Part shown: piece after piece, positions 29,501-59,929 of the stretch
Layout: every line of letters starts with the position of its first letter
Position numbering within the stretch: position 1 is the stretch's first letter
Source of the DNA: a virus
Virus genome (UHGV): UHGV-1368455
Strand: one strand, 5' to 3'
Length of the DNA: 64,000 nt
Program-made: the position numbers and the translations under genes
Notes under the pieces: generated by a model
The model's input: the letters and a program-made list of their open reading frames with translations, nothing else
Databases searched by the model: none
Told to the model about the DNA's origin: nothing

Positions 29501-32500
29501 ATGTAATAGAACTCATCCAATTCTTAGTGAAGAAGATGCTGTTGAGTTTGTACTTCCCGATGAACACATAGAAGATAGCGCTATTGATTATGATATTAAA
29601 TCTATAAAGAAAGCATATCCTGATGCTATTAGGAAAAAAGAAATTAAATATGATACTTCTAATATAAACATAAATTATAATACTATTAGTATTGATGACG
29701 CTTATAAGATTTTTGAAAATTTAAGATGGACTGATGAAAATGGTAAACATCATTCTTTATATATGAATTTCAAAGATGATACAATAAGTCTTCAAGAAGC
29801 TATTACTTGTGCAAAAGCTATGGCGTATAGTACTATTAATGGAAATTATAGCGATACTGTTGTTAGAAATATTTGGTTACATAAATATAATAATGAACAA
29901 TTAGTTAATCTTGAAAAAGCTCTTAAAGTTGGCGATGATATAGGTGCTCAAGCCGATGAATGGCCTGCTATTAGAGAAAAGGTTATTGATACTTTTAAAG
30001 AAGCTGCTAATAAACAATTTAGCCCTAAAAGAGAATCTACTGCTCGTAAACAAACTATATTTACAGCTAATAAAATAGGTTGGTCAGATACTAATAAAAA
30101 TCTTGTAGGTGATTTTGTTACTACTTATACAGCTCAAACTACTGCTCATCATCTTGACGCTGTTAAACAAGGGTCTATTCCTAATGTTAATGAATATACT
30201 TTTCATGTATATAAATTCCTTACTACTATTGGTCTTGACCATGAAACTTCTGTAGGTTTTATTCGTCAGCCTGCTATTACTAAACTTGTTGCCAACAATA
30301 ATCTTATTAATTCTGTATTCTTTAGTAGCAAAAATGATGCTGTTAAAATGACTTTAGCTGATATTGCTACAAGATTGGGTCGTAAAGCTAAAGGAAAATA
30401 TGATATAACTCATAATACTTCTCTCGGAGTTATATTGAATAGTCTTAAAGAAGATGGATGGTTTGTAGAAGAGTTCAAATATCAAACAGGTATTGATATT
30501 ACTAAAGTAAATAATAATAAAATTCTTAAACTTAGAATACCTCTTAATAAAGCTGATATATTTAAACGTATTAAAGATGAAGCTACTAAAACTGGAGATG
30601 TATATGAAAATGCTGTTCAAGACGTTATAGTTCTTATTCAATTTAGTCAATATAAACGTACTACTGATAAACTTAATGAGTATATACAAGCTCTCAATGC
30701 TGACAAGATAGGTGCTGCTCCAAGTATTCGAGAAACACGTCAAATGAGAGACAGAATTAATAAACTTCGTCAAGATTCAACTCTTACTATTGATGGAGAA
30801 TCTATGATTAATAAAATTTATCCTGCTGATAAATATAATTCAAATGCTATTAAAGTAGATGAATCTGTATATGCTCCTATTGCTGCTGTTTATTCTATGG
30901 CTACTCTTCCAAGTATTGAAGTTGGTGGTAAAATCTTTACTATGGAAAATGAAGATTTTGCTATTGCTGAAGAAACAGTCCAACAAACTATTCATAAAAG
31001 ATTAAATATCGAAGAGTATAAAGAGTATAAACGTTATGCCGTCGCCACATTATATAATACGATTAGCAAGCTATTGACGCCTTTGACGGTTGATGAACGA
31101 GGACGCATTATACCTTATTCAGAAGAGATAGTTAATGAGGACACAGAGCTAAAAACAGCTTCACCATACTGGGATAGAGAACGTTCTCGTATTGTTGGTT
31201 ATGGTATTACTGATGAAGGTAATTTCAAATGTGCTAATGTTAATGCTCCTACTGCTGATGAAATTAAAGAATATCTTAAACTTACTCCTGCACAAAAAAT
31301 TATATTTATACAACGTAATTTCTCTGATAATCAAGGAGTATTTAATAATATAAAAGTTACTCTTATTAATAATACTGACGTTCGTAATAAAGGTATTAGT
31401 AGACAATATCTTAATTATGATGACCAAGTTGATAGTATTGAGGATTTGTTTAGTATGTTTGAAAATAGTTTTAGTAATCATAATCCTCTCATTAAACTTG
31501 CCGCTGTTGATTTAATTAAATACGCTTTTATAGCTGAAGGATTTAATTTTAAGTCTGGTTATATTACTAAGATAATTCCTAACGATACTCTTTACTCTGA
31601 TATTAATGACGGAGGTATGGATATTATTGAAGATATTAAAACTAAAGGCGAAGCCTTATATCATATTATTCAAAGTGAAGAATTTATTAATAATTTTATG
31701 CGCAGTCATAGCGGACTTGCTCCGCTTTTTACTTTAAGTCCAAAAGATAAAACTACTAATATATTTATATCTTGTAGTAATATTGATGGACTTGTTTCTT
31801 TCGATATGACTACTGAAAATACTCAAGCTACATGGTTGCATAGTCAGCTTATGCTTCAACGTTATATTGATGGTTATATAAGAGTTACACATCCTGTTGG
31901 AGAAAATAAAACTCCTGTTACTACTTTATATAAAGTTCTTGGACGAAATGAAATTACTGACGAAAATGGATTTGTTAAAGGTTATAAAGACATATATCTT
32001 GTTCCTCTTAATCTACTCGATAAATATGAAAGTTATGATATAAGTTATAATCAAAACTATAATCAATTTAATGATTATTCTTATTATGTAGACAGAGTAG
32101 ATAATCTTGCTAATGAAACCGAAAGTTATCGTTCTTATAATATTAATAAATTTCAGGAATATAAGGAAAAAATGCTTACTACTGATAAAAATGATATTAA
32201 TACTCGTGCTCAATATTCTAAAATGTCAGAACAATATTTACGTGAAAGTCAACGAGCAAGAAGTAAAGCTATTGATAAATATCCTGGCAAATCTAATCCT
32301 ATTGGTAAGTTTAATCCTACTACTAATAAAACTTTTAACAATCCTAATGCTTTAATGGAACTTGCTGAAAGTTCTGATAAATATTTAGCTGGTGCTGTAT
32401 CTAAATTTATTAATGATATTAATCAAGCATTTATTTCTAAACTTGCAAGTGGAGATAATATTGGTATGTTTGTTGTTAATAATTCATATCAACTTAATAA

Positions 32501-35500
32501 TCTTATACCTGCTGGCACATTTATAATACAAGATTTTACTAATGAAGATGGAGATATTGTTAGATTGCAAATCGGTCATACTCCTACTAAAAATTTACTT
32601 AAAACTATTTATAATATTACTCATGGCAAAAATGATAGTAACATAAATCTTAAATATGCTATTAAACAACTTGCAGAAACTAATACTCGACCAAATGCTG
32701 CTAATTATTTCTATATAACACAAGTTCCTCTTACTAATGAAGAAGCTGAAGAAAGATTAAATGCAGCAACCGATTTAATTGCTGATGATTCTGTCGTTGA
32801 AGACGCTGGGCTACCCCGTAGAGGGACATCTCGTGTCAATATTGATGTTGTTAGTGCTTCTGTTATGAAACAAATTCAATATGAAGCTCTTAAAAACAAT
32901 AATGCTATTGCAAGACGTTTTATTCAAACTATGGAACGTCGTGGTATTAATAGAAATTATCGTAGTTCTCTTGCTGAACACCGTAAAGATATTTATCGTG
33001 CTGCCGCAAGATATTATCAATCTGCTGCAAATAGTCTTATTAATGCTCTTAATGGTTATGAAATAGCTGGACAAACACTTCGTATGGATAGTCCTGAGTT
33101 CTTTGAAGAACTTGCTAAACATGATGAAGAATTTAATAAAGTAGCTAAAATTATTCTCGACGCTGTTACTTTTGGCAATCGTATAGCTCCTATTATGCAA
33201 CTTGATATTGCCGCTGAAGATAAAGAAACTAAAGAAGGTATTCAATCTATTCAAAATAGTATTAATTCTATTAGAACTAATACAGGATTTAAGACCGCTC
33301 TTGCTAATATGTTTAATATATATTTCAAAAAATATTCTACAAATCCTGACATTAGTGATGGTATTCTTAATCTTCGTGACCAATTTGGTGATATAGATAC
33401 CATCGTTGCTCTTATTTCTGACCCTGCTGAAATTAATAATAATGAAGTTCAAGTTATTCTTAAAAACATTTATAGTATGTTTAGTAAAGCAGAAATGTTT
33501 GATACTGAACGTAATATAAAAGAATGGAAAGAACAACTTACTAAAATTGATGCTATGACTGAAAGTCTTGATATGGATAAAATTATAGATTCTGAACACG
33601 GTATGCTTCGTCAAGACTATAATGATAAATACCTTGAAGATAAACAAAAAGTTATTGATGATTTTAATGAGGCTCGCAAATATAAAGATGAAAGTCAAGA
33701 AGCATTTACTAAATATATTAAAGCTAAATATGCTCGTGATGAATTTATGTATAAACATCAACATCAACTAATTGTTGATGATTATTATAAAGAAGATTTG
33801 GCTATGCGTAAAGAAGTTATGGATAAAGCCAAAGATTTATATTATGAGTATATGCGTTATATTACTGAACTTTATAATTTGAATACTGGAGAAGATGAAG
33901 ATAATGAAGATGTTAAGAAACGTAAAACAGAACTTATCAATCATATTACTGCAATACGTGCTGACAACGATATAACAGGAGAACTTAAACCTATTCAGCA
34001 ACGTATGAAAGTTAAAGCACTTAATGATTATATTACTAAACATAGAGAACTTGCTCATAAATATTTTAATACACAAGAATATGATGGTTTTCAAGAAGAC
34101 TATAATCGTTATAATGATTATATTAAATATCATGATAAAACTCATAAACGTTTAAGTCTTGAAGAAAAACTTGATGACCCAGAATATCGTGAAGCATATA
34201 ATTGGATTAAAAATAATGGTAAACTTAGATATACTGATGAAGCCGCTGTTAAAATTGCAAACGCTTTTGATGTATTAACTAAACGTCAAACTGCTATTTC
34301 TAATAAGACTTTGCATGCTATTCGTAAAATGGAAGGTGTTATTGATGATAATGGTATTATTGATGGACGTAAGTTAACAAATGAACAAATTGCTCAACTT
34401 CGTGAAGAAGAAATGGATGAACTTGCTACTAAATATGAGAATGGAAATGGAGAAATGATGCTTATCAAAATGATTTCCGTTCGTCCTCCTATTATGAATA
34501 GTCGTCCAAAGGATGATGAAAGTAAAAAAATACTTATGGATTTACAATATAAAGATAATAAACTTAAATTTAAGATTATTCAAAATATTAACGAAATACT
34601 AATGAAAGCTGTTGACGCTGATACAGGAGAAGTCAATATGGTTTATTTATTTAATAATAATTATGTTACTAATGAAGATAGAGAAGAACTTGCTGAACTT
34701 TATAATCAATTACGTTCTTTAAGAAGTGAATCTCTCCGTAAGTTTAAGAAGAGAAAAAACAAAGTTTATGAAGATATTATTGACAATAATGCTTATAATA
34801 AAGCTAAAATATTTTATGATACTCTTCCAAAAGGTTCTATTCAAGCCAAACAATGGCTTAATATATTTACTGAATTAGATGCAGACGGCAATCTTGTTCC
34901 TAACAGTAATTTATTTGGTTATCATCAAGCTAAAGAAGATTTTATTGACCATGATAAAACTAATGCAAGAGATTTTATATTTGATAATATAGAGTTTGTT
35001 CCTAATGAATATTATTGGTTAGCTGCTGAAGAACATAAAGAAAAAGGTGATTATGATGAATGGTTTAGACAAAATAATGTTTATAATCCTTATACTCATA
35101 AATATGAGCCTTTGAAAATATGGACTACAATGCAAGCTAAACCTGATAGCGAACTTGCTAAATCTATTGAATATGTGCCTACGTTTGATAATATGGAACG
35201 TAGTGTTAAAGAAGAATATATCAATACTAATTTCAAAGAATTTAGTCCTAATTATAAGAAAGGTGATTCTAAATATGATACTAATATTAAACTTAATCTT
35301 AAAGAACAAGCACTAAAAGATTTAATTCAACAAACGTTGAATAAATATGCTACTACTTATCAAGGACGTAAATTTGTCGGACGTGGATTTTTACCTCGTT
35401 CTCGTTCTGTACAAATTAATCCTCGTTGGGCTGGTGGTCAATTAATGTCTTTATTTGGTGTTAGTTGGCATAGTGGTGCCGATAGTGATAGTTTCCATGA

Positions 35501-37700
35501 TATTGTTGACTATTCTCATGATAGAGAAGCTGATATGAAAATGCTTTCTCTTCTTAAAGGTAAAGGTACTAAAGATTATATTCCGTCGCCTAAACGAATG
35601 GAATATAAAACAGCTGAAGAATATGAAAAAGCTGTTGAAGAAGTTCGTAAACAAAATCATGAGATTTATCTTCAAAATCTTGCTATTGATAATAAAAATC
35701 TTAATCGTAATTGGCGTAAAGTAATGGAAGACTTTGTTTATAACGCTACTATATTTAATTCTCGTCAAGCTGCCAAACCTTATCTTTATCTTCTTCTTGA
35801 AGACTTAAAGAATAATGATGCTTATAAGATTAAAGGTATGTGGAATAAACGTCTTCTTAAAGATGTTGATACATCTACAAAAGATGACCCTCAATATCAA
35901 AGACAAGCGCAAACTCGTACTCAGCAACTTATTCATAATCTTGCTCGTCGTTTATTATTTGACCAATATCATGAAAATAGTGTTGCTCGTTCTGTTGCCA
36001 ATCTTCTGCAAAATATTACTTCTGCTAAATATATGGTATTTAACTTATATGGCGGTGTTGCTAATATTACCACAGGTAAAGTTAATATTCGTGCTGAAGA
36101 ATTTGCTAATGAATATTTTGGTTTTAGAGAACTTAAAACTGCCGAAAAAGAATATCTTACTAATATATGTGCGTTCTTAGCTTCTCGTTTTACTGATAAA
36201 TCTCCTACTCTTGCAGCTGCATTTATTAAACAATTCCATGTTGTAGACTTTGACCAAGTTCTACAATTTGCTGCTAATGAAGGAGAACTAAATACTAAGG
36301 TTAGAGAATTTAGAGATTTTCTTTATAGTTTCCAATCTATGGGCGAGCACTATATGCAAAATACTGTTTTATTTGCTATGCTTAAATCTAATAGACTTTA
36401 TACTGATACTAATGGAGTTATGCGTATTGGTGATTTCAAAGATTTTACTTGGGATGTTGAAAAAACTGCTATGCGTAATATTCTTGCTGAATATCCAGAA
36501 GTTGCTACTGATTATGAAATGTATATAAAAGGAATACGTGAATACGATATTGAAACTAAACTTGATATTTCAACAGGTCGTAAAAATCTTAATCGTAATT
36601 TCCTTTATTCTATTAGAGATAATACTAATCAATATAGTCAAGCTTTATATAAAGAAATTGCTACTAAATATCATACAGAAGTTAAGAAACTTATGAAAGA
36701 AGCAAAACAACAATTCATGACTAATCCAACTGTTGAAAGTCTTTATGAATTTGTTGATGGACGCGCTGAACTTAAAAAAGAATATAAAGATAAAGTTCCT
36801 ACTGATAATAAAATTGGAGATTTAGAAACTCTTATTGCTCAGTTCAAAGAAAAAGTTAAATCTGTTAATAAAAAGATACACGGTGTATATGATAAAGATG
36901 GAGCTGCTCAAATAGAAAGTAAATGGTGGGGTAGTCTTGTAGCACAATATCATAAACATCTTCCTACTGGTATTTGGAAACGTTGGCGTCGTAAAGGTTA
37001 TTATTCTGAATTTAGAGGTTCTCGCGAACGTGGTTCTTATCAAACTTTTATTGATTTTATGGGAACTGAATTTACTAATTTTAATAAACGTATTAAACAA
37101 CAATCTGCTGATACTAATATAGCACTTGCATCTATTCAAGTTACATTTAAGTCTATTATTAACACTCTTACTAATTTACAATTTAATTATAATAATCTTG
37201 CTCCTTGGGAGAAAGCTAATATGCGTCGTAATCTTGGAGATTTAAGCGGTATTCTTATTGCTTGTCTTGTAGTTGCCGCTTTATATGGATTATCTGATGA
37301 TGACGATATTAAGGATGATAAATTTAAGGCTTCTCTACTTTATCTTGCAGATAGACTTTATAGTGATAGCTCAATGTATAGTCCTGTTGGTCTTGTTAGC
37401 GAATATAAGACAGCTTGGAGCAGTCCTATTGCTTCTGCTAATGGTCCAAGTGATCTTATGAAAGCTATGACTATTATTCCTCAATATCTATTTGACCCAG
37501 ATTATGATAAAGAATATACTACTGGACTTTATAAAGGACAAGATAAACTTATGGTTCTTCTTAGACGTAACCTTCCTGGTATTCGTCCTTGGGATAGAAT
37601 ACAAATGATTACTCGTAATAATAATTATTATAAGATTGATAGTTCACAAATAGGAATTAGTATTGCTAAAGATTTTGGTGAACTTCTTGCTGGTGAGTAA
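23532..37700 (+). CDS. giant protein (4722 aa) with a DxDxD motif, putative virion-packaged multisubunit-like RNA polymerase of the crAss-like type
   Basis: Uninterrupted 14.2-kb ORF. YRIPTEGKQS…GSDFDVDSIYG with DFDVD at 28527-28541 resembles the metal-binding aspartate triad of two-barrel RNAPs. Three in-frame repeat copies (LSLYGGV, ELPRRGI, GLPRRGT). Confidence 0.6.
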   Translation: MGLITAFTIHNIFSKQQIQTIVHYSDESYNGDSNMNCTINDLNLSFDKDNRLRTTIGRVAGWSVDKAYVLASFLQDESFKKYLSKMLTDKDIIGGAAIDLKNITDNDYININQNKLGSLLNVYYIDHYHSVNNSKTNKALGRLNGFSSGTAKTVGLNYTADRIIDKYYDEFGKAKPKKSQEIIAEVINDIEHELYKQVNLFANNVISSDKYSKAARDYAQKFIDIIKRIEENNNKIKETTIFANANKNQLRQYNGKKVTEEEKSIIKRLTDIDKQYKEELASLGKDNARAALDRYVIAQNLVNLYANNVDGALNKRLRNFANLVAQMKGDTNGWFFQVMNTKRMTSIVKEFNNIGDIEEYIEQQDENNDNIIDKYNGQDVDQTTKSWEDSLYKSFNSAISGKMRIILSRVPKLSSPFNPTAEIQSLDTENELGVKTYMDAQFITVQMFSFGDFSDIESMVRSIERRANTVEELYGIGMLVNQMKQDKVFANYMYANFAKPLVNKTMCVISDLTKESGITFNYSNANAFYSTKMAFDMMNKLRASYNTQYDINDYKTIQALGNKLRNPKLPIEFDDTEIIYNTLLKYFPNIKREVYDNFLRGIKDDKRNALINFTQNLIAIINGAGALKTKINTAIEESNRKYNNAKKKFNQDYNAYLEAGDTQAVKQMKYPTYQGVDYTEYDLDPNTLKAVIRLAENLSDYSASKARLNTANAEGNTASDVTKNCYITRFFEQINAGTEEDSNAGLHALLDYITQGTENGKENQYSNNPLFFGVKDENGRVIIPGMFTRVGDIFNINKNAKEILNYSLFDGTKNTQSGNGSGYASMSKLDFFVTQYIAYANSVGDINENGINKKIGNLDSSVYAMRIGSDAPKIYMIRAPRYNYRQLQYAFYNHLMDELNMYVNSLNKIFRKNNAGEYKLITTTNGLYGRAFFDEGAADNLRKDGKKDMSKAFVEENNGRLQLAGKMFKFLRLFDANGHSAATDIETVLSLYGGVDANATSLFIKDGRTKLKLNKDYINSENGFIKELTDEQGTRFVLDLGATQKKALLNIVDNWMKDVLQESTARTSDFVQAMEHNNIQYTQPMIQSFILNALNMNMNYDDMFEGDFKFYNNARDFLKRTKESQAGGDGCSGYRLTELPRRGITENTYFGEPEIINVKTAKNTEAGTYIVPTYDNGSIVNKPMTARNGFRAVTIHNTIKPSDVAMDLQETLEEEFISQGMSKEDAHARSVKIAGGYFAQTKVNDAQSFITLEEFIRRKYADGTIGNYQDLIAQLLDPNVKAEDIDVDAVNARIQVQKNFYFDKQFDPYTGTFVPRQIKNAEFVLIPKLLPQDSDLIKVYEWMRANDIGQLNTAETDKAAKKNIFTIWSEDTGEFIDPRNNKKFREDYIQNYYYQYLYKQQDVPQHMINEENKLGAQIQKKIIDNVSTASKQVQDWANEYQEALVENIREDYIRFLDRMGWEYDSESGHIVNSEYATKDANGNPLPAEVIKSNRETLNLTDFYTRAREEAARLGMDSNFIEYLIPNEFGVTTMPNLMNNVASKLESVAQALFNRTVTRQTMPGWHAAQVTDVGYSRRLLKFDPKTGVMEVYLPRWSNLLPKPKNAEEEKKLLEQIAKEGLDIHLGYRIPTEGKQSISVLRVVGFTNDALGSTIIVPEEWVTQTGSDFDVDSIYGISYEIYAKKDKKGNITVYKIPCEEDKVDNDNLYINYVNSRLEDKVKRSDIGEEIESRIKELRDSLKAQIGDKLNSNNAAFVAVDTQRNELFNKLPAWARGIIVNEQTKAKRVAKKDKVSVDLRGEYQVINKLFDEQLTKRNLDDATADIIKQYMDYQTSLINIMNEQDGITTFDKDEYISSKKDIIATAVENARKEQVKLCESKANEVGLMSYDDFIKQPLIKRLSRKARNNYILDRMINIMNDRSSREEQYGRSQFEGIAGEETSANDIINKISGQSKRSYSPYNPLDQLDYFEDAMGGARLKALSVNWDTFVSKCNRTHPILSEEDAVEFVLPDEHIEDSAIDYDIKSIKKAYPDAIRKKEIKYDTSNININYNTISIDDAYKIFENLRWTDENGKHHSLYMNFKDDTISLQEAITCAKAMAYSTINGNYSDTVVRNIWLHKYNNEQLVNLEKALKVGDDIGAQADEWPAIREKVIDTFKEAANKQFSPKRESTARKQTIFTANKIGWSDTNKNLVGDFVTTYTAQTTAHHLDAVKQGSIPNVNEYTFHVYKFLTTIGLDHETSVGFIRQPAITKLVANNNLINSVFFSSKNDAVKMTLADIATRLGRKAKGKYDITHNTSLGVILNSLKEDGWFVEEFKYQTGIDITKVNNNKILKLRIPLNKADIFKRIKDEATKTGDVYENAVQDVIVLIQFSQYKRTTDKLNEYIQALNADKIGAAPSIRETRQMRDRINKLRQDSTLTIDGESMINKIYPADKYNSNAIKVDESVYAPIAAVYSMATLPSIEVGGKIFTMENEDFAIAEETVQQTIHKRLNIEEYKEYKRYAVATLYNTISKLLTPLTVDERGRIIPYSEEIVNEDTELKTASPYWDRERSRIVGYGITDEGNFKCANVNAPTADEIKEYLKLTPAQKIIFIQRNFSDNQGVFNNIKVTLINNTDVRNKGISRQYLNYDDQVDSIEDLFSMFENSFSNHNPLIKLAAVDLIKYAFIAEGFNFKSGYITKIIPNDTLYSDINDGGMDIIEDIKTKGEALYHIIQSEEFINNFMRSHSGLAPLFTLSPKDKTTNIFISCSNIDGLVSFDMTTENTQATWLHSQLMLQRYIDGYIRVTHPVGENKTPVTTLYKVLGRNEITDENGFVKGYKDIYLVPLNLLDKYESYDISYNQNYNQFNDYSYYVDRVDNLANETESYRSYNINKFQEYKEKMLTTDKNDINTRAQYSKMSEQYLRESQRARSKAIDKYPGKSNPIGKFNPTTNKTFNNPNALMELAESSDKYLAGAVSKFINDINQAFISKLASGDNIGMFVVNNSYQLNNLIPAGTFIIQDFTNEDGDIVRLQIGHTPTKNLLKTIYNITHGKNDSNINLKYAIKQLAETNTRPNAANYFYITQVPLTNEEAEERLNAATDLIADDSVVEDAGLPRRGTSRVNIDVVSASVMKQIQYEALKNNNAIARRFIQTMERRGINRNYRSSLAEHRKDIYRAAARYYQSAANSLINALNGYEIAGQTLRMDSPEFFEELAKHDEEFNKVAKIILDAVTFGNRIAPIMQLDIAAEDKETKEGIQSIQNSINSIRTNTGFKTALANMFNIYFKKYSTNPDISDGILNLRDQFGDIDTIVALISDPAEINNNEVQVILKNIYSMFSKAEMFDTERNIKEWKEQLTKIDAMTESLDMDKIIDSEHGMLRQDYNDKYLEDKQKVIDDFNEARKYKDESQEAFTKYIKAKYARDEFMYKHQHQLIVDDYYKEDLAMRKEVMDKAKDLYYEYMRYITELYNLNTGEDEDNEDVKKRKTELINHITAIRADNDITGELKPIQQRMKVKALNDYITKHRELAHKYFNTQEYDGFQEDYNRYNDYIKYHDKTHKRLSLEEKLDDPEYREAYNWIKNNGKLRYTDEAAVKIANAFDVLTKRQTAISNKTLHAIRKMEGVIDDNGIIDGRKLTNEQIAQLREEEMDELATKYENGNGEMMLIKMISVRPPIMNSRPKDDESKKILMDLQYKDNKLKFKIIQNINEILMKAVDADTGEVNMVYLFNNNYVTNEDREELAELYNQLRSLRSESLRKFKKRKNKVYEDIIDNNAYNKAKIFYDTLPKGSIQAKQWLNIFTELDADGNLVPNSNLFGYHQAKEDFIDHDKTNARDFIFDNIEFVPNEYYWLAAEEHKEKGDYDEWFRQNNVYNPYTHKYEPLKIWTTMQAKPDSELAKSIEYVPTFDNMERSVKEEYINTNFKEFSPNYKKGDSKYDTNIKLNLKEQALKDLIQQTLNKYATTYQGRKFVGRGFLPRSRSVQINPRWAGGQLMSLFGVSWHSGADSDSFHDIVDYSHDREADMKMLSLLKGKGTKDYIPSPKRMEYKTAEEYEKAVEEVRKQNHEIYLQNLAIDNKNLNRNWRKVMEDFVYNATIFNSRQAAKPYLYLLLEDLKNNDAYKIKGMWNKRLLKDVDTSTKDDPQYQRQAQTRTQQLIHNLARRLLFDQYHENSVARSVANLLQNITSAKYMVFNLYGGVANITTGKVNIRAEEFANEYFGFRELKTAEKEYLTNICAFLASRFTDKSPTLAAAFIKQFHVVDFDQVLQFAANEGELNTKVREFRDFLYSFQSMGEHYMQNTVLFAMLKSNRLYTDTNGVMRIGDFKDFTWDVEKTAMRNILAEYPEVATDYEMYIKGIREYDIETKLDISTGRKNLNRNFLYSIRDNTNQYSQALYKEIATKYHTEVKKLMKEAKQQFMTNPTVESLYEFVDGRAELKKEYKDKVPTDNKIGDLETLIAQFKEKVKSVNKKIHGVYDKDGAAQIESKWWGSLVAQYHKHLPTGIWKRWRRKGYYSEFRGSRERGSYQTFIDFMGTEFTNFNKRIKQQSADTNIALASIQVTFKSIINTLTNLQFNYNNLAPWEKANMRRNLGDLSGILIACLVVAALYGLSDDDDIKDDKFKASLLYLADRLYSDSSMYSPVGLVSEYKTAWSSPIASANGPSDLMKAMTIIPQYLFDPDYDKEYTTGLYKGQDKLMVLLRRNLPGIRPWDRIQMITRNNNYYKIDSSQIGISIAKDFGELLAGE
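26499..26518 (-). repeat. dispersed element, copy 7 (variant)
   Basis: TCTCTCTACGGGGGAGTTGA. In the 4722-aa CDS, encoding LSLYGGV. Confidence 0.7.
26943..26967 (+). repeat. dispersed element, copy 8
   Basis: GAACTCCCCCGTAGAGGGATAACTG. In the 4722-aa CDS, encoding ELPRRGI. Confidence 0.9.
32808..32828 (+). repeat. dispersed element, copy 9
   Basis: GGGCTACCCCGTAGAGGGACA. In the 4722-aa CDS, encoding GLPRRGT. Confidence 0.9.
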
Positions 37701-37801: not shown

Positions 37802-38275
37802 TTAATCATTGTGTTTAGGATGTGCCACAGGTTTAGCAACCTTATGCGGACGGCTGCTATTTTTAGCTGTTATTAGCTTTGTATTACATTTATTTATTTG
37901 AGCTGATAACTTATCCAACTGAATAACTATATCGCTTGTATGCTCATAATTTGAGTGCAACTTATCTTTAATTTCATTATGATTATTAGCAATATATTCA
38001 TTAATATTTTTAATTAATTGAAGAGTAGCATTTATAGTAGTATCTGCACCTTTAATATAATTATGAATTATATTTATAACACTATTTAATACACAAATAT
38101 TGCTATCAATCTGTTCACAATTACTTTTAATAGTATCAATATCTTTATCTATTTCTTTATAAGTATCATAAACATTATTATTTAATTCGATTATCTTTTT
38201 CTCTAATCGCATTAACGTAATAGCCATTATTATAACTATTACTAATATTGTTCCTATTAAAAAATACATAATCAA
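37802..38275 (-). CDS. hypothetical membrane-anchored coiled-coil protein
   Basis: 157-aa ORF with an N-terminal hydrophobic segment (FLIGTILVIVIIMAITL) and heptad-like N/I/K-rich regions. Confidence 0.5.
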   Translation of the reverse strand: MIMYFLIGTILVIVIIMAITLMRLEKKIIELNNNVYDTYKEIDKDIDTIKSNCEQIDSNICVLNSVINIIHNYIKGADTTINATLQLIKNINEYIANNHNEIKDKLHSNYEHTSDIVIQLDKLSAQINKCNTKLITAKNSSRPHKVAKPVAHPKHND

Positions 38276-38293
38276 TCACAATTAAAGTGCATC

Positions 38294-38320
38294 CATCCCT
38301 ATACGGGGGAGTTCGACGAT
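38294..38320 (-). repeat. dispersed element, copy 10 (variant, intergenic)
   Basis: CATCCCTATACGGGGGAGTTCGACGAT. Left arm of an intergenic inverted pair with copy 11. Confidence 0.75.
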
Positions 38321-38379
38321 TAATACCGACAATAACAATAGTATTAATCGCCGTAATAGCACTAGACGTTATTGACGTT

Positions 38380-38402
38380 GGGCTACCCCGTAGAGGGATA
38401 AA
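38380..38402 (+). repeat. dispersed element, copy 11 (intergenic)
   Basis: GGGCTACCCCGTAGAGGGATAAA. Right arm of the pair. Same GGGCTA-prefixed form as copy 9. Confidence 0.9.
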
Positions 38403-38428
38403 TAAAGTCAATTTGTTATTTATAGCTT

Positions 38429-38800
38429 TTAATCAATATTTGCGCCTTTGGGATTACGAGCTTTATCAATACATTCATCATCATAATGAATAATATCAAG
38501 CCCATAACTTGCGGCAGCCCTATATTCTACAAGACAGCCGCGAGCAAATTCCCAACCTTTACAGAAATAAACTGCATCACAAGTAGACATTTTAGCAAGA
38601 GACTGAGCAAGAAAATAAAGAGGAATATTTTGAACTCCAATATTTCTAAGACTCTCAGGCTTATCGAAATCATCACCAAAATAAGTATTAACTATTTCAT
38701 ATCCTTTTTCTTTAAGGACTTTAACAGCTTTAGCTTTTTCAGCTAAAATTTCTTCTTCTGTTTTACCAGCCATAGGCTGACTAATCATTGCTTTCTTCAT
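38429..38800 (-). CDS. DUF4406-like protein (nucleoside 2-deoxyribosyltransferase-like fold)
   Basis: 123-aa ORF. The pattern MAGKTEEEI…KGYEIVN…CDAVYFCKGWEFARGCLVEY resembles DUF4406 proteins common in phages. Judged by eye only. Confidence 0.45.
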   Translation of the reverse strand: MKKAMISQPMAGKTEEEILAEKAKAVKVLKEKGYEIVNTYFGDDFDKPESLRNIGVQNIPLYFLAQSLAKMSTCDAVYFCKGWEFARGCLVEYRAAASYGLDIIHYDDECIDKARNPKGANID

Positions 38801-44105: not shown

Positions 44106-44967
44106 AACTTAAAGCGTTAAGTTCAGTTTTAATCATGCCAGCAATAATCTTAGCGTTAGGATGAGGATTACCAGTAGTACCATAATAACGAAGGTCAAGA
44201 ATAGCACGCCATTCATCTATAGAATAAGTATATACAACTTCTGTTGCAGTATCAAGAGGAAGTACACCACGAGCATCTTGACGAAGCATACCATTATCTA
44301 CAAGAAGTTTATATTTATTAAAAGAATCATTACAACTATCTCTAAAAATAGATGCTTTTTTATGAGAATCGCACCATTCTTCAAAAATAGGTTCATTATT
44401 TAAATAATTTACTTCTTCGTCAGTCATCCAATAAGGACGACAAATAGTACCATCTTCATAAACATATCTTGTAGACTGTTCAGCAATATTGTTAGGACTT
44501 ACTCTATTTAGTTCTCTACTTGTACTAATTTGAGTTGTAATCTTAAAAGTATATCGCATCATATTCCATGCCATAAAACAAGCATTAGCGAATACTTCAT
44601 CTTCAAGTTGATAATCAAGAATAGTATAAATTAAACATCGATGGTCAAGATTCCAATTACCATTAGTAACAACATAATAATAATTAGAATCAATCTTAAT
44701 ATCGATTCCTATTATGTTAGCTTCATTTCGAATAGCTATATAATAATATCTAACCCAATCTGGAACTTTAATTCTTGGAACAATAAAATAATATGTAGCA
44801 TGACGAAACATACTCCAATGTTTGTTTTTAAGAAGATTATTATAAGTAACTTCATCATTGCCAGTTTCTTTTTTATAACAAACTCTTGCACAACGGACAA
44901 TATGTTTAGCTATATCATTTTGTTCCCAATATTCAACGTTTGGTTTTATTATTTTCATATCTTGCAA
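44095..44967 (-). CDS. thyX: flavin-dependent thymidylate synthase ThyX-like protein
   Basis: 290-aa ORF. VRCARVCY, EQSTRYV and LRQDARGVLPLDTATEVVYT…ILDLR resemble the ThyX core. The canonical RHRx7S signature is not intact (FRHATYYF), so this may be divergent. Confidence 0.55.
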   Translation of the reverse strand: MQDMKIIKPNVEYWEQNDIAKHIVRCARVCYKKETGNDEVTYNNLLKNKHWSMFRHATYYFIVPRIKVPDWVRYYYIAIRNEANIIGIDIKIDSNYYYVVTNGNWNLDHRCLIYTILDYQLEDEVFANACFMAWNMMRYTFKITTQISTSRELNRVSPNNIAEQSTRYVYEDGTICRPYWMTDEEVNYLNNEPIFEEWCDSHKKASIFRDSCNDSFNKYKLLVDNGMLRQDARGVLPLDTATEVVYTYSIDEWRAILDLRYYGTTGNPHPNAKIIAGMIKTELNALSYDI

Positions 44968-45706
44968 TTATATTTTGATAAACGTCCAAAACTTTATAAA
45001 ATAAATTAAATAAAGTAGTATTATTAGTAATAGTATATTCGCAATCAATATCAATTTGTTCAGATATATGTATGGAATTGTCATCGTTGTGATTATTTTT
45101 TTCACGAGTGACCATAATAACTCCCCCGTAGAGAGGATGTTGTTGTATGGTTTTAGCTTCATTCGTAAATCTAACATCTGGAATAAGACAAATACCATAC
45201 AAACGATTAATATTGTCAACTTTATTCATAGTAGCTCGTATCCAAATGTCGTCACCAAGATATTTTCTACATATATCAGTTCCAAAAAATTGTAATATAG
45301 TTCTAATTTTTATAACACGAAGTTTTTTAGTATTTTCTAATTGATAACTAAAATATTCAGGAGAATTAACAAGAGAACTATATTCAATAATCTTATAAAC
45401 TTCTTGATGATGAATTACATCTTTACAATCATAAAATTTGCAATTATCAATACAAAAGAAAGAATTATCTTTATAGTATTCATCATCAAGATATTCTCTT
45501 GGTATATTATAAATAGCAGATACACAATCTCTAAGAGCGTCGGCAAAATGAACAGATTTACGTTTAGCTCTATCTTTATTAGAAACTCTATTAGCAATCC
45601 ATTCTTGATAATTAGCTTTAGTAACTCCAACAGTGTGTATATAAGCAATCATATTAGCAATGGTATCTTTGCCAGATTGTTTTTTACCACATATTCCAAT
45701 AATCAT
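44933..45706 (-). CDS. P-loop deoxynucleoside monophosphate kinase-like protein
   Basis: 257-aa ORF. N-terminal IGICGKKQSGKDTIANMI P-loop and LIPDVRFTNE resemble T4 gp1-type dNMP kinase. Contains a variant repeat copy (PLYGGV). Confidence 0.5.
   Translation of the reverse strand: MIIGICGKKQSGKDTIANMIAYIHTVGVTKANYQEWIANRVSNKDRAKRKSVHFADALRDCVSAIYNIPREYLDDEYYKDNSFFCIDNCKFYDCKDVIHHQEVYKIIEYSSLVNSPEYFSYQLENTKKLRVIKIRTILQFFGTDICRKYLGDDIWIRATMNKVDNINRLYGICLIPDVRFTNEAKTIQQHPLYGGVIMVTREKNNHNDDNSIHISEQIDIDCEYTITNNTTLFNLFYKVLDVYQNIIARYENNKTKR
45119..45138 (+). repeat. dispersed element, copy 12 (variant)
   Basis: AACTCCCCCGTAGAGAGGAT. Inside the - strand dNMP-kinase-like CDS, where it reads PLYGGV. 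Confidence 0.75.
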
Positions 45707-46246: not shown

Positions 46247-46594
46247 CTATGTAATAATATAAACATCATAAGTATTAGCACTTTCAAGATATTCAACATT
46301 AACATTGCCACGAGTTTTACATTCATTTTTAATATAACTATCTATTTCTCCATGAGTTCTAAGATGTAGACGACCATATTCATCCACTTTACATTTACGA
46401 CAATGCTCATCAAACTCAATAGAACTAAATAGAAAAAAGTATTCTCGATTTAATGTAATACTATTATATCTTGCAGCTTCAATATAGTATTTATAATCAG
46501 TACGAGTATTAGGAATAACAAACTCTCCTCGTTTATTATAATGTGGAAGAGTTTTAACAGTTTTAGGATTAATTACTTCATATTGATAAATCAT
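46247..46594 (-). CDS. hypothetical protein
   Basis: 115-aa ORF. Cys/His pairs present (HCRKCKVDEYGRLHLRTHG) but no recognised motif. Confidence 0.45.
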   Translation of the reverse strand: MIYQYEVINPKTVKTLPHYNKRGEFVIPNTRTDYKYYIEAARYNSITLNREYFFLFSSIEFDEHCRKCKVDEYGRLHLRTHGEIDSYIKNECKTRGNVNVEYLESANTYDVYIIT

Positions 46595-47805
46595 ACAAAT
46601 CTTGTAGTTTTAATATGCCATGGGAGTTGATTAACTCCACTTCTTTCGCCATACTCTACAAATACTTTCTTGCCAATATAATGATTCTTTGCTTTAAGTA
46701 TAGATTTTTGATAAGATTGAGTACCACCAATATGTATTTCAAAAGTAGCATCATTAATATCATTTCTACATACAAGAAGAGGAATATCTGGACGTTTAAT
46801 ACCTTCGGGTTTAATATCAATTACCTCAAATATACCATCAGTAGATTTTTTATACTTAATCATTATATTAGCAGAACGTTTACCAAAAGCATATTCGGCA
46901 TCTGGATTACGAAGAATAAGACCTTCAAATCCACAATTAATATTATTATTACGAGCAATTAATGCTTCAGTAGGAGTAGAAACTTCAACATGAGGAAGAA
47001 CAACTAATCTTTCAGTATTAGCTAAATGTTCTTCTTTATTAACAAAGGGTTTAACAAACCAACTCAATTTAGCTTCAAGTATTTCAGTACGATAATATTG
47101 TAGTATATCTTCAACAGCTAAATCATAACACCAAAATTGAATAAATTTATTTTCTTTACAATAAGGGTCTTTAATAAAATGATTCAGCTGATTAACAGTA
47201 TAACCGGGAATATATAATTCGCCATCAAGAACTATATTTTCAGAAGCCATACGAGCAAGAAAATCTTTTGGCATAATTTCGAGAAGATAATCTTCAAGAT
47301 AAGTAAGACTATTCCAAAATGTTCCTTCACGAGATTGAAAACGAAGTCCAATAGGCTTAAATAAACTACTTCCAATAAGATGAGCACTAATAAAACATCT
47401 AAGACCATTAATTTTATATTGTCCTATATAAGAACTACAACGGTCAAAGACTTTATCATCATAAACTTTAGCAAGCATAGCAAGTAAAGTATCATTAGCT
47501 CCAGCACGATTATAAGGCAGATATTTATCAAGATAAGATAACAATTCTTCCTCTACGGGGTAGTTCGTATTATCTTTAATATCAGCAAGAGTACGATAAC
47601 CAGTTTTAATCTTTGCTTTTATACGTGAGCTAATTTCATCTTCAACTTTACGTCGAGTGGCAACTACTTCATCAAGCATAGTTTTACCTATAATACCATG
47701 ACGAATATGTATAAAATGGTCATCTCGTTTAACAGCTTCCCATACACATATTTGTCCATAATTATTACGACGATAAAGAGCAGTTAAATAATTAAACGGA
47801 TACAT
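46591..47805 (-). CDS. ATP-dependent DNA ligase, with an atypical motif I
   Basis: 404-aa ORF. Motif I-like KINGLR (47404-47415 region), motif III IVLDGELYIPG, motif IV EGLILR, motif V IMIKYKK. Contains a variant repeat copy (NYPVEE). Confidence 0.65.
   Translation of the reverse strand: MYPFNYLTALYRRNNYGQICVWEAVKRDDHFIHIRHGIIGKTMLDEVVATRRKVEDEISSRIKAKIKTGYRTLADIKDNTNYPVEEELLSYLDKYLPYNRAGANDTLLAMLAKVYDDKVFDRCSSYIGQYKINGLRCFISAHLIGSSLFKPIGLRFQSREGTFWNSLTYLEDYLLEIMPKDFLARMASENIVLDGELYIPGYTVNQLNHFIKDPYCKENKFIQFWCYDLAVEDILQYYRTEILEAKLSWFVKPFVNKEEHLANTERLVVLPHVEVSTPTEALIARNNNINCGFEGLILRNPDAEYAFGKRSANIMIKYKKSTDGIFEVIDIKPEGIKRPDIPLLVCRNDINDATFEIHIGGTQSYQKSILKAKNHYIGKKVFVEYGERSGVNQLPWHIKTTRFV
47549..47567 (-). 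repeat. dispersed element, copy 13 (variant)
   Basis: TCCTCTACGGGGTAGTTCG. Inside the - strand ligase CDS, where it reads NYPVEE. Confidence 0.65.
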
Positions 47806-48405
47806 TTATTCTTTCTTTTTGAAACTAAACGTCATAGAACTAAGTGGCACAGTACTTTTCTTAATAGCTTTATTGATTTTACGAGCATTAAGTTCTTTAA
47901 GTTTATCGCCATCTTTACTTTCAATATGTTCGCCAGTTTTAGGATTATCATAATAATATATCTTTTCGCCAGTAAACATATCAATAGTAGTTTGCTTAAA
48001 AAACTTATTAGGTTTAGCACGTTTAGGTTTACGCTTAGGATTCTCAATATTAGCTACACAAGGATTTTCGTGTTCAAATATAAGATTATCTATATGACGT
48101 TTAATAAGCTTGTTTATGTATTGATTATAAATAAATTGATTAACAAGTTTAATAACAAACCAAAAATAAAAAGTACCATAAATACTATAAATAGGATATG
48201 TAGTCATCATAGGACGACCAGAACTATATTCTTTAGTACAATCCATATAAACAAGATATTTATCAAGTATATCGGTAATATCTTTATCGCTATTATAATC
48301 AGGAGTTTGTTTCCATTTCTGATAATTAATTATAGGATATTGAATAACTAATCTACTATGTTCATTAGTTATAGGATTATCAAAGTTTATCTTTAATATC
48401 ATCAT
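47806..48405 (-). CDS. hypothetical protein
   Basis: 199-aa ORF. Confidence 0.45.
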   Translation of the reverse strand: MMILKINFDNPITNEHSRLVIQYPIINYQKWKQTPDYNSDKDITDILDKYLVYMDCTKEYSSGRPMMTTYPIYSIYGTFYFWFVIKLVNQFIYNQYINKLIKRHIDNLIFEHENPCVANIENPKRKPKRAKPNKFFKQTTIDMFTGEKIYYYDNPKTGEHIESKDGDKLKELNARKINKAIKKSTVPLSSMTFSFKKKE

Positions 48406-48898
48406 GTTTAAGTCTATGTTTACCTGTTTTATAAACTATAATACGTTTAGGTTTACCAATAAGACAATGACAATAAGCAAACCAAAGAATTGCATCCCAT
48501 GTTTGAAACATTTTAGGTTTTCTATCAATAGTAGTAGCAATACCAGTTTCATAATCAAAATTAGAATAAATCCAATTACCACGTTCATCAACAAGATTGA
48601 ATTTTTCAATAATATCTAAATCGTCATCACTATCCAAATCTATTTCTCCATACATATAAATATCTTTTTGATTTATGATAGTACCATCTTTTCTTTCATA
48701 ACGAGTAACACCAAAATATTTAGACGATTTATCTATCCTATTTTCTTCTTCTTCGGTAATTGCTTCCATAACAACAGTAAAAGCGACTTTATTATCATTA
48801 GAACGGCAAAGAGTTATTGTTCCCGTCCGTATCCCTAACAGGTTTATTGTCTTCTCTTTTACTTTGTAATTCATTCGTTTTAATATATTTGATAGCAT
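48380..48898 (-). CDS. hypothetical protein (true start probably further downstream)
   Basis: 172-aa ORF. Its 5' 100 nt overlap the upstream primase-like gene, so a downstream start is likely. Confidence 0.4.
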   Translation of the reverse strand: MLSNILKRMNYKVKEKTINLLGIRTGTITLCRSNDNKVAFTVVMEAITEEEENRIDKSSKYFGVTRYERKDGTIINQKDIYMYGEIDLDSDDDLDIIEKFNLVDERGNWIYSNFDYETGIATTIDRKPKMFQTWDAILWFAYCHCLIGKPKRIIVYKTGKHRLKHDDIKDKL

Positions 48899-50025: not shown

Positions 50026-50030
50026 GGTAC

Positions 50031-50077
50031 AAATAAAAAAATAGGGAGCAACCGCATCCGAAGATACAGCCACTCCC
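50031..50077 (-). terminator. rho-independent terminator downstream of the SSB-like gene
   Basis: On the - strand: GGGAG…CTCCC stem (50044-50048 / 50073-77 on +) followed by TATTTTTTTATTTG. Confidence 0.5.
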
Positions 50078-50098
50078 TTAATTTAAGCACTAACAATA

Positions 50099-59368: not shown

Positions 59369-59858
59369 AATTTTAATTGTTTAATTGTTATTTATAAATA
59401 TAATCCAAAGTATAATTTGTAGTAGTAATGCAATAATAAATATAATTATACTATCTTTATTATAATGATTATCCATAAATAAATAATATTTAATTATTAA
59501 TATTCGATATAACAAGCGTAAGCTGTATAGTAGTATAAGTCATCAGCTATCATATATAAATACAATATAAAGCTAATAACAGCTTAAATATCGAATGTGT
59601 TGGTGCAGTCCAGTATCGGACAAATATAAAATCGCCATGACGACATTATTTGCGGCAACATTAAAAGCATAAGTTGGAAAGCTATTTGCGACAAGATAAA
59701 TATCATCATGGCGAACGATAAAACAAATCTATTAAAATGACTGCAATATACATAATAATTATTATCACAATAATCATTATATACAATATGATTATATTTC
59801 ACAATATAAGCATATTTTAGAATTAGCATTGTAAATATAAAACCAACACAAAAACAAG

Positions 59859-59929
59859 TTGGAGTAAGAGGATTCGAACCTCTACTAACAGAATCAAAAT
59901 CTGTGGTGCTACCGTTACACTATACTCCA
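59859..59929 (-). tRNA. tRNA-Gln (anticodon UUG)
   Basis: Folded by hand on the - strand. Acceptor TGGAGTA/TACTCCA with a U1:A72 pair, U8, D-stem GTGT/GCAC, anticodon stem ACAGA/TCTGT with loop TTTTGAT (anticodon TTG), T-arm AGAGG-TTCGAAT-CCTCT, discriminator A. No encoded CCA. Confidence 0.75.

Follow-up and report, generated by a model that had tools for sequence, protein, structure and literature searches.

In the 64-kb window (the whole stretch of viral DNA that was analysed, 64,000 nucleotides), a 153-bp gap at 38276-38428 separates two minus-strand genes and contains two oppositely oriented copies of a short motif. At 38291-38402 the sequence reads ...atccatCCCTATACGGGGgagttcg...(spacer)...gggctaCCCCGTAGAGGGataaat..., with the 12-nt core of the motif present as CCCTATACGGGG (38297-38308, +, one mismatch) and as CCCTCTACGGGG (38386-38397, −, exact). 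The original prediction described an inverted pair about 106 bp long across a 59-bp spacer, and its coordinates and sequence are confirmed by the present analysis. The 12-nt cores are 77 nt apart; the figure of 59 bp holds if each arm is counted as about 25 nt. A plus-strand ORF at 38287-38493 (68 aa, GTG) exists mechanically; the suggestion that it is spurious is reasonable, but was not tested beyond showing that spacer length is not conserved in relatives. The features of the locus, and the other copies of the motif in the window, are as follows.

38296-38312 (+): left arm of the pair, motif copy TCCCTATACGGGGGAGT, with one mismatch in the 12-nt core
38382-38398 (−): right arm of the pair, motif copy TCCCTCTACGGGGTAGC read on the minus strand, with an exact 12-nt core
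38314-38353 (no strand assigned): inner hairpin in the spacer, CGACGATTAATAC / GTATTAATCGCCG, 12 of 13 positions complementary, 14-nt loop; specific to the window and not conserved in relatives
37802-38275 (−): downstream gene, encoding a 157-aa N-terminal hydrophobic plus coiled-coil-like protein; the last gene of the minus-strand block, its start lying about 20 nt from the pair
38429-38800 (−): upstream gene, encoding a 123-aa nucleoside 2-deoxyribosyltransferase-like protein (phrog_355, E=4e-20)
60644-60660 (−): second intergenic pair, degenerate copy (TTCTCTACGGGG core, two mismatches), divergent geometry
60727-60743 (+): second intergenic pair, exact-core copy
5903-5919 (−): intragenic copy (ORF 5467-6150, antisense, reads SPVEG), lineage-specific, arisen by in-frame substitution
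7332-7348 (+): intragenic copy (ORF 7042-7893, sense, PSTGE), 100% conserved in six relatives, where flanks are 64% identical
11440-11456 (−): intragenic copy (ORF 7893-11777, antisense), orthologous in relatives
13066-13082 (+): intragenic copy (ORF 12473-14089, sense, variant GGGC), orthologous in relatives
19690-19706 (+): intragenic copy (2237-aa ORF, sense)
23121-23137 (−): intragenic copy (2237-aa ORF, antisense)
26499-26515 (+): intragenic copy (4722-aa RNAP-type ORF, sense, SLYGGV), orthologous in relatives, forming a 449-nt convergent pair with 26949
26945-26961 (−): intragenic copy (4722-aa ORF, antisense, LPRRG)
32810-32826 (−): intragenic copy (4722-aa ORF, antisense)
45120-45136 (−): intragenic copy (ORF 44933-45706, sense), orthologous in five relatives
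47548-47564 (+): intragenic copy (ORF 46591-47805, antisense), orthologous in relatives and, by gene order, in crAssphage (ligase gene)
49189-49205 (−): intragenic copy (ORF 48798-50096, sense), orthologous in seven relatives
53972-53988 (+): intragenic copy (ORF 53081-54457, SNF2-type, antisense)
55587-55603 (−): intragenic copy (ORF 54460-56814, family B DNA polymerase, sense)

The motif has 18 copies in the window at two or fewer mismatches, against 0.21 expected by chance, and none of 100 shuffles reached 18. Across 117 distinct instances, only positions −1 to +15 are conserved, that is, 16-17 nt (T-CCCTCTACGGGG-G-A-G), and information content falls to background outside this range. Fourteen of the 18 copies lie inside long ORFs, in four reading frames and both orientations. 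Most copies that could be mapped sit at the same position and orientation in relatives whose flanks are about 60-75% identical; this was seen for nine copies. For the nine copies that could be scored, the motif is 79% identical against 61% for the flanks; site 7333 scores 102/102 against 64%, and site 49193 scores 91% against 49%. The lineage-specific copy at 5907 aligns to relatives without any gap, indicating substitution rather than insertion.

Sister motifs occur in prototype crAssphage, with 17 copies against 0.04 expected in 50 kb and 32 copies genome-wide, and in cultured crAss002, with 13 copies against 0.04 expected in 50 kb and 27 genome-wide. The motif is absent from the first 50 kb of crAss001 (Steigviridae), where an over-represented CTCCAGAAGGAG looks codon-driven. 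A clade of ~50-kb contigs also lacks the motif and has other GC-rich repeats. Exact-sequence searches of the literature with four variants from the window and four from crAssphage, together with keyword searches, found no description of the motif in the papers searched, and the 2014 crAssphage paper mentions no such repeat.

The second intergenic pair (60648-60659, −, two mismatches; 60728-60739, +) is real, but its geometry is the opposite: the first pair is convergent, with the motif 3′ ends inward, whereas the second is divergent, so they are not two copies of one composite unit. The original prediction had named the comparison of the two spacers, and the search for similar pairs elsewhere, as tests of its reading. 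The spacers proved to be unrelated (local alignment P=0.07 against shuffles), and in relatives spacers vary from 59 to 103 nt without conserved sequence or fold. A similar paired arrangement, however, was found: an inverted pair in the last intergenic gaps of the replication-gene block, either convergent or divergent, is present in about 65 of 80 related IMG/VR loci, and an inverted pair lies in the same genomic neighbourhood in prototype crAssphage and in crAss002. The two copies are therefore a genuine, non-coincidental arrangement.

The interpretation offered in the original prediction, a composite MITE-like unit or a paired protein-binding site, is partly supported: a paired binding or recognition site remains a live reading, whereas the mobile-element reading is effectively refuted and very unlikely. 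A multi-copy GC-rich motif in an AT-rich genome, in an inverted arrangement about 100 bp long, would suit a MITE or two adjacent insertions. However, there is no element body, no direct repeat flanks the pair, the copies occupy orthologous fixed positions across relatives that are only about 65-75% identical at the nucleotide level, a new copy arose by substitution without an indel, and copies are in frame inside essential genes. No transposase is annotated in the crAssphage or crAss002 records. The intragenic location of most copies also does not fit REP/BIME elements; no RAYT (Y1/HUH) transposase is annotated in the same two records but, since not all of the window's proteins were scanned, this leaves an association with such an enzyme undecided. 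An invertible segment was also rejected: in the roughly 45 crAss002-like loci with a divergent pair, the bases flanking the arms on the spacer side always occur in the same arrangement (gtggaa next to the − copy, acc..c next to the + copy), and inverting the kb-scale intervals would break ORFs.

The region folds strongly as a single strand, at −47 kcal/mol (z=−5.9) on the minus strand and −41.8 (z=−4.5) on the plus strand; the second pair folds at −36.8 (z=−5.2). In the minus-strand mRNA the two arms could form a 12-19-bp GC-rich stem between two genes, acting as a processing site, a partial terminator or a stabiliser ahead of the last gene of the block, with the intragenic copies a separate matter. 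The outer stem is kept in all seven convergent-type relatives folded, despite unrelated spacers; in the related locus L278 both arms carry the same G-to-A change, which keeps them complementary, and the tolerance of G.U-type pairs is a classic RNA signature. This RNA-level role is nevertheless doubtful, since any inverted pair of the motif would fold this way automatically and since it does not explain 14 intragenic copies, half of them antisense to the mRNA. No T/U run follows the stem, and a scan for terminators and sigma-70 promoters found nothing at the pair, although it does not model Bacteroidetes promoters; relatives use a canonical A-run/hairpin/T-run terminator elsewhere. Nor is this an RNA gene: ARAGORN found only a tRNA-Gln at 59858-59929, and Rfam gave nothing at the gathering threshold and only E>3 noise in a permissive search.

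Several features point to strand specificity. With an unbiased anchor on the loop plus the 3′ arm, the five preceding positions are at least 97% pyrimidine, a C/T mix, whereas the 3′ arm stays G; every stem pair is therefore C-G or T.G on this strand, but would be C.A on the other. The loop centre is A in 117 of 117 instances. Orientations alternate more than in shuffles, in 13 of 17 transitions in the window (P=0.037) and 22 of 32 in crAssphage (P=0.039), and the largest gap is only 6.7 kb in the window (P=0.02) and 7.1 kb in crAssphage (P=0.005). These alternation P-values are modest, and in crAss002, where the largest gap is 10.3 kb, neither alternation (P=0.08) nor spacing (P=0.16) is significant. 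All 11 close pairs (≤500 nt) in the three genomes are inverted. There is no clear sense bias relative to genes (43 sense, 34 antisense; 9:9 in the window, 19:13 in crAssphage and 15:12 in crAss002), which argues against an mRNA signal.

The surroundings of the pairs in relatives are origin-like. In crAssphage both RepL genes (PF05732) have a divergent pair upstream; in the crAss002-like clade the pair is followed by GCGAGC repeats, about 300 nt of AT-rich DNA, two 21-bp repeats and a RepL-like gene. All (NAGCG)n runs in crAssphage and crAss002 lie 4-8 nt downstream of a motif. The window's own pair lacks the GC-rich tails, and searches for a RepL-like initiator next to the window's pairs with PHROGs, Pfam and BLASTP against the RepL-like proteins of crAssphage and of the related locus L078 were all negative.

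Taken together, the analysis itself establishes that the feature at 38294-38402 is two oppositely oriented copies of a 16-17-nt cis-acting motif, T-CCCTC-TAC-GGGGG-A-G, which phages of the crAssphage family (Intestiviridae) keep under purifying selection, mostly at fixed, orthologous positions on both strands about every 3 kb and largely inside protein-coding genes, and that it is neither a transposable element nor an RNA gene. Its purpose is not yet known, and how it works is an inference only. The preferred explanation, held tentatively, is that on one particular strand the motif folds into a 5-6-bp stem, in which every pair is pyrimidine:G, closed by a 3-nt Y-A-Y loop. When DNA becomes single-stranded, at replication forks or by supercoil-driven extrusion, this hairpin would mark a start site for an enzyme that begins RNA chains on single-stranded templates; two candidates encoded by these phages are the DnaG-type primase and the ssDNA-dependent virion RNA polymerase. 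Single copies, alternating between strands, would serve forks or unwinding in either direction, and the intergenic inverted pair, which in relatives lies next to GC-rich GCGNAGC mini-hairpin repeats, an AT-rich tract and a RepL-like initiator gene, would supply one start on each strand at the same spot, that is, a bidirectional start.

There is a precedent in that the virion RNAP of crAss-like phage phi14:2 transcribes ssDNA but not dsDNA, with no early-promoter motif known (bioRxiv 10.1101/2020.03.07.982082), and N4 virion RNAP uses extruded template-strand hairpins with a GC-rich heptamer and a purine at the loop centre (PMC4496689). However, there is no direct evidence for hairpin formation, priming or transcription, and primer synthesis at the motif was not measured here. 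The stem evidence is weak as covariation, since one arm is all G and the other all pyrimidine, so any Y 'pairs'; true double changes are few (T-A 23, C-A 5) and phylogenetically confounded. The T.G pair in the middle of the stem is nearly invariant, which looks like sequence recognition rather than structure. DnaG and T7-type primases need only trinucleotides, and phi14:2 early transcripts showed no common motif.

The main rival, only slightly less favoured and likewise tentative, is a double-stranded operator or architectural site: a 15-bp imperfect palindrome (TCCCYC-N3-GRGGGA) bound as duplex DNA by a dimeric phage protein acting as a regulator, roadblock or genome-organising protein, with the pair as a double site allowing cooperative binding or looping. 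The quasi-palindromic 16-17 bp are typical in size of a dimer site, lineage-specific variants are consistent with co-evolution with a protein, the near-invariant T at stem position 3 and the invariant loop bases look like base-specific contacts, and paired sites lie in control-like intergenic regions upstream of RepL-like genes. On the other hand, the two half-sites do not tolerate the same changes, the left varying C/T and the right being invariant; a symmetric dimer site would not need the non-random orientation; and most sites are deep inside ORFs with no relation to gene starts. No candidate binding protein was identified. A scan of genome contigs, protein-structure tools and homology searches, none judged decisive for a DNA motif, were not employed. 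Such a site would work like the dispersed operators of phage P1 C1 or the 'stoperators' of mycobacteriophage L5.

A strand-oriented self-tag, working like Chi or uptake sequences and needed within every few kb on both strands to modulate a processive nuclease/helicase or to initiate recombination between co-infecting phages, is also doubtful. Even coverage with small maximum gaps, both orientations and inverted pairs in intergenic gaps would fit, as would copies embedded in coding sequence in several frames and created by point substitution, the pattern of USS/DUS. The phages encode RecT, a PD-(D/E)XK nuclease and a Gam-like inhibitor, although the latter would make Chi redundant. BLAST alignment breakpoints against relatives are mildly enriched within 30 nt of motifs (10 observed against 4.5 ± 2.1 expected), but this enrichment is weak and the data points are not independent. 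Chi sites are 5-8 nt and are not hairpins, whereas the motif is 16-17 nt (up to about 24 nt in crAssphage) and hairpin-capable; its distribution resembles these tags, so a comparable mode of action is still possible.

Site-specific single-strand nicks in virion DNA, as in T5, phiKMV-like phages and phage tf, with close inverted pairs giving staggered double-strand breaks, are unlikely. A conserved, strand-specific consensus of about 17 nt is dispersed over the genome, and three independent, near-full-length IMG/VR contigs end inside the divergent pair of the crAss002-like clade; the one contig checked at both ends, however, is a circular assembly with a 99-nt overlap, an assembly break and not necessarily a physical end. 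In crAssphage PacBio and MiSeq data, read starts were reported to pile up only at the ends of the ~2-kb terminal repeats (PMC6712665). These repeats were not placed relative to the pairs, as that paper gives lengths only and the GenBank record of crAssphage LMMB carries no terminal repeat. A partial scan of metagenome contigs, mixed with chance hits, showed no clear excess of ends at the motif, and a 26-nt divergent pair (crAssphage 22901/22927) would break the genome.

crAssphage and its relatives are the most abundant phages of the human gut, yet how their genomes are replicated, and how their unusual ssDNA-dependent virion RNA polymerase finds its start sites, is unknown. A near-invariant motif that survives inside the DNA polymerase, helicase, ligase, RNAP and tail genes of phages whose surrounding DNA is only about 60-75% identical must serve an important nucleic-acid-level function, and its presence in cultured crAss002 makes the question directly testable. 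The motif is also a compact sequence marker for the family and a caution for annotation, since spurious ORFs such as 38287-38493 arise from it, and it means that coding sequence in these phages carries a second, non-protein layer of constraint. A more far-reaching possibility, unlikely but not excluded, is that the family carries a genome-wide set of strand-specific DNA-hairpin start signals, 18-32 per genome and written into coding sequence on both strands, with which its ssDNA-dependent two-barrel virion RNA polymerase, or its primase, begins RNA chains. This would be a convergent and far more extensive counterpart of the N4 hairpin promoters and would supply the missing 'promoter' of crAss-like virion RNAPs, with inverted pairs acting as bidirectional origins or early-transcription starts.

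Among known systems, the early promoters of the phage N4 virion RNA polymerase share a small GC-rich hairpin with a 3-nt loop whose centre is a purine on one strand and, as is proposed for the motif, are read on single-stranded or extruded DNA by a giant virion-packaged RNAP; the motif, with 5-6 Y:G pairs and its Y-A-Y loop, fits the N4-type stem of 5-7 bp, and the GCGNAGC heptamers next to the intergenic copies in relatives are of the same class as the N4 hairpin core (PMC4496689). However, N4 has three promoters, all co-oriented and upstream of early genes, in contrast to 18-32 copies on both strands and mostly inside ORFs; the crAss RNAP is a two-barrel enzyme unrelated to the T7-like enzyme of N4, and no transcription start data exist. 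The RSF1010 ssiA/ssiB and G4-type single-strand initiation signals and mitochondrial OriL are hairpins on ssDNA that recruit a primase or RNAP, and ssiA and ssiB form an inverted pair on opposite strands inside an origin, next to repeats, AT-rich DNA and an initiator gene, resembling the pairs upstream of RepL-like genes in relatives. Those signals are confined to origins and are about 40 nt or longer, and the phage primase is annotated as DnaG-type, not RepB′; the inverted pair is present in the window while the origin-like context was seen only in crAssphage and the crAss002-like clade, so the observations do not settle whether the window's pair belongs with them.

Mycobacteriophage L5 stoperators and phage P1 C1 operators are likewise tens of near-identical 13-17-bp sites spread over a phage genome, including inside coding regions, but stoperators are co-oriented with transcription and belong to temperate phages with a repressor, whereas here orientation is not tied to the direction of transcription and no repressor is known. 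Uptake sequences (USS/DUS) and Chi are over-represented oriented short motifs with even coverage, embedded in ORFs in several frames, generated by substitution and found as inverted pairs in intergenic gaps; they are, however, 5-12 nt, non-hairpin, and belong to cellular genomes with known machines (competence pili, RecBCD/AddAB), no such machine being known for these phages. REP/BIME elements and MITEs, including in-frame Rickettsia palindromic elements, are imperfect palindromes in many copies with inverted pairs, but REPs are extragenic and linked to RAYT transposases, and MITEs and RPEs are insertions with a body, whereas the copies described here arise by substitution, have no body and are positionally fixed.

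The intergenic region contains two copies of a GC-rich motif in inverted orientation, so the arrangement described in the original prediction was confirmed. The features concerned are as follows.

38297–38308, plus strand, left motif copy, CCCTATACGGGG, with one mismatch
38386–38397, minus strand, right motif copy, CCCTCTACGGGG
37802–38275 and 38429–38800, minus strand, the two ORFs bounding the 153-bp gap that holds the pair
38287–38493, plus strand, a mechanical ORF, present as described and regarded in the original prediction as spurious
60648 (minus strand) and 60728 (plus strand), the second motif pair

The window has a G+C content of 30.6%. The 12-mer occurs 18 times at ≤2 mismatches, against 0.21 expected from shuffles. 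The region folds into a long stem-loop on either strand (−47 kcal/mol, z = −5.9; −41.8 kcal/mol, z = −4.5). The second pair is real, but it is divergent, whereas the first is convergent. An alignment of the two spacers, proposed beforehand as a check on whether the pairs form one composite unit, showed them to be unrelated.

An alignment of 117 distinct instances from the window and from related contigs indicated that only positions −1 to +15 carry information (T CCCTCTACGGGG G A G); the flanks are at background and there is no element body. Fourteen of the 18 window copies lie inside long ORFs, in both orientations, and the copies are read in four different frames (PSTGE, SLYGGV, SPVEG, LPRRG). 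The genes containing them include those of the family B DNA polymerase, an SNF2 ATPase and a giant RNA-polymerase-type protein. The latter is encoded by a single 4722-aa ORF at 23532–37700, the counterpart of the crAssphage ‘RNAP catalytic subunit fused to unknown subunit’, which carries three motif copies (26500, plus strand; 26949, minus strand; 32814, minus strand). A motif conserved regardless of reading frame and strand is a nucleic-acid signal, not a peptide.

The exact 16-mer was found in about a dozen crAss-like IMG/VR contigs, 50–97 kb in size, which are only about 65–75% identical to the window. Nine window copies are located at the same position and in the same orientation in one to seven of these relatives. 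For the nine copies that could be scored, the motif is 79% identical and the 40-nt flanks are 61% identical; individual sites show a sharper contrast, with site 7333 scoring 102/102 against 64% and site 49193 scoring 91% against 49%. Two copies (5907 and 26949) are specific to the lineage of the window. Copy 5907 aligns to relatives without any gap (AATATTCCAGAAAATAGTAAA against AACTCCCCCGTAGAGGGACAA) and so was written in by substitution, which removes the idea of a MITE; a mobile element is considered very unlikely. The interpretation given in the original prediction, a composite MITE-like unit or a paired protein-binding site, is therefore only partly supported, since the second of these readings is still possible.

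The window belongs to the family Intestiviridae, and two other members of this family carry sister motifs. Prototype crAssphage (Carjivirus communis, BK010471.1, whole genome) has 32 copies of tCCA-TCCTC[T/C]ACGGGG[A/G]GT on both strands (17 against 0.04 expected in 50 kb), and cultured crAss002 has 27 copies of TCCT[C/T]TA[C/T]GGGGGA. By gene order, sites in the ligase, gp21, SNF2 and PolB genes correspond between the window and crAssphage. The first 50 kb of crAss001 (Steigviridae) lacks the motif. The most over-represented GC-rich 9-mer there is CTCCAGAAG (13 copies), and the 12-mer CTCCAGAAGGAG has 7 sites at ≤1 mismatch, which probably reflects coding for Pro-Glu-Gly.

The presence of similar pairs elsewhere, which had been named in advance, together with related spacers, as a point that would separate a real arrangement from coincidental adjacent insertions, was examined in 80 loci fetched using the neighbouring N4-gp49-like gene as the query. 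About 65 of them have a close inverted pair of the motif downstream of that gene. The pairs are either convergent, 80–122 nt apart, as in the window and in the related loci L028 and L047, or divergent, 32–44 nt apart. crAssphage has divergent pairs at 22901/22927, 28077/28172 and 95745/95864, the last two lying upstream of its two RepL genes, and crAss002 has one at 64739/64775. A clade of ~50-kb contigs with the same N4-gp49-like gene (loci L118–L130 and L132) lacks the motif and has other GC-rich repeats instead (AGCATGCGG, CACTGTGGC, GGCAATGCC).

In the convergent relatives the arms always pair, but the spacer ranges from 59 to 103 nt and has no conserved sequence or fold. Neither a tRNA nor an Rfam family matches the pair, and there is no terminator-like T run. 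An RNA stem-loop role, proposed for the pair only, is considered unlikely. The pair is best described as two motif copies placed on opposite strands in the last intergenic gaps of the replication-gene block; it is a conserved arrangement, not a gene and not a composite element. The second pair is poorly conserved, with only four relatives found. One of them (L278, 2010–2095) has an orthologous but degenerate inverted pair in which both arms share the same G-to-A change (TTCTCTACAGGG ... CCCTGTAGAGA), suggesting either that the arms must stay complementary or that they are homogenised.

Other features of the window include the following.

59858–59929, minus strand, tRNA-Gln (anticodon TTG), the only tRNA and the only Rfam match in the window
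37861–37920 and 59529–59588, the longest inverted repeat in the window, 60 nt, 82% complementary, arms 21.6 kb apart, one inside the small gene just downstream of the first pair and the other near tRNA-Gln
61360–62330, about 1 kb with no ORF of 100 aa or more, part of it only 20–21% G+C with strong positive GC skew (0.35–0.6), containing AT-rich repeats (61894–61934 and 62064–62104), possibly a control or origin region
62313–62345, AGCGAGCGGG plus a GGGTCTTTAGACCC hairpin, noted with the preceding region
62840–63577, minus strand, an ORF of 245 aa without a PHROGs or Pfam hit, in a stretch (62700–63580) of 45–47% G+C, far above the window average, and possibly a recent acquisition

The motif shows strand asymmetry. 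When instances were collected with an anchor on the loop plus the 3′ arm only, the five preceding bases were at least 97% pyrimidine, with a mixture of C and T, while the 3′ arm stayed G. On this strand every stem position is therefore C-G or T.G; on the other strand the T.G positions would be C.A. The loop centre is always A. This fits a hairpin read on one strand as single-stranded nucleic acid, but it is not strong covariation, because any pyrimidine can pair with G. Orientation is not random: it alternates in 13 of 17 transitions in the window (P = 0.037) and in 22 of 32 in crAssphage (P = 0.039), and all 11 close pairs (≤500 nt) in the three genomes are inverted. A duplex operator for a dimeric protein is a possible alternative, only slightly less favoured than the hairpin reading; the palindromic shape and the invariant T.G favour it, while the half-site asymmetry and the orientation rules weigh against it.

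The spacing of the copies is even, the largest gap being 6.7 kb in the window (P = 0.02) and 7.1 kb in crAssphage (P = 0.005); the largest gap in crAss002, 10.3 kb, is not significant. A Chi- or USS-like self-tag or recombination hotspot is considered unlikely, alignment breakpoints being only weakly enriched at motifs. There is no clear sense bias relative to genes (43 sense, 34 antisense), which speaks against an mRNA signal.

In relatives, intergenic copies are followed 4–8 nt downstream by runs of NAGCG. This extended form, with (NAGCG)2–4 runs, was found at six sites in crAssphage and crAss002.

6021–6075, 28172–28230 and 44905–44964, crAssphage, in which the runs are then followed by CTACTAAT
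4209–4250, 47839–47880 and 86170–86223, crAss002

All six such runs in these two genomes are next to a motif and sense to the local genes. They contain GCGNAGC heptamers, the class of GNA mini-hairpin at the core of the N4 virion-RNAP promoters (PMC4496689). In crAssphage both RepL genes (Pfam PF05732) have a divergent pair upstream. In the crAss002-like clade the pair is followed by GCGAGC repeats, about 300 nt of AT-rich DNA, two 21-bp repeats and a RepL-like gene; in locus L078 of this clade (5010–5290) the two copies of TTATACGCAAAACTGTATAAA lie directly upstream of a RepL-like winged-helix gene (5279–5770), and the layout looks like an origin or operator region. The motif sites of the window lack the extended form, and no RepL-like neighbour was found at the window's own pair.

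Three independent, near-full-length IMG/VR contigs end inside the divergent pair (3′ ends of loci L071, L134 and L088). The one checked at both ends (contig 3300045988_019421, other end L146) is a circular assembly with a 99-nt overlap. The break coincides with a hypervariable half of the spacer, and may reflect microdiversity, a coverage gap or something physical. crAssphage genomes are reported to be linear with ~2-kb terminal direct repeats (PMC6712665), which were not placed relative to the pairs in this analysis. The reading of the motif as a nick site is considered unlikely.

According to published work, the virion RNAP of crAss-like phage phi14:2 transcribes single-stranded but not double-stranded DNA, and no motif was found upstream of its early transcripts (bioRxiv 10.1101/2020.03.07.982082). 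We tentatively favour a strand-specific ssDNA hairpin that marks start sites for an enzyme beginning RNA chains on single-stranded DNA (primase or virion RNAP). In this view, the copies are distributed on both strands so that either direction of unwinding is served, and the pair provides one start per strand. The anatomy, conservation, distribution and context of the motif were shown by the analysis, while hairpin formation and the identity of the initiating enzyme are inferences.

Literature searches with the exact sequences and with keywords found no description of the motif, although subscription papers were largely not covered and a prior description cannot be excluded. We place the motif among dispersed cis-acting phage genome signals, a kind already known, as a form for which no description was found, with a real chance that it is something more novel. 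The motif works most like dispersed oriented recognition signals, namely N4 hairpin promoters, ssi priming signals, stoperators and Chi/USS. The origin-like context of a pair of ssi priming signals is present in crAssphage and the crAss002-like clade but was not found at the window's own pair, and the motif fails a defining feature of each of the other three families.
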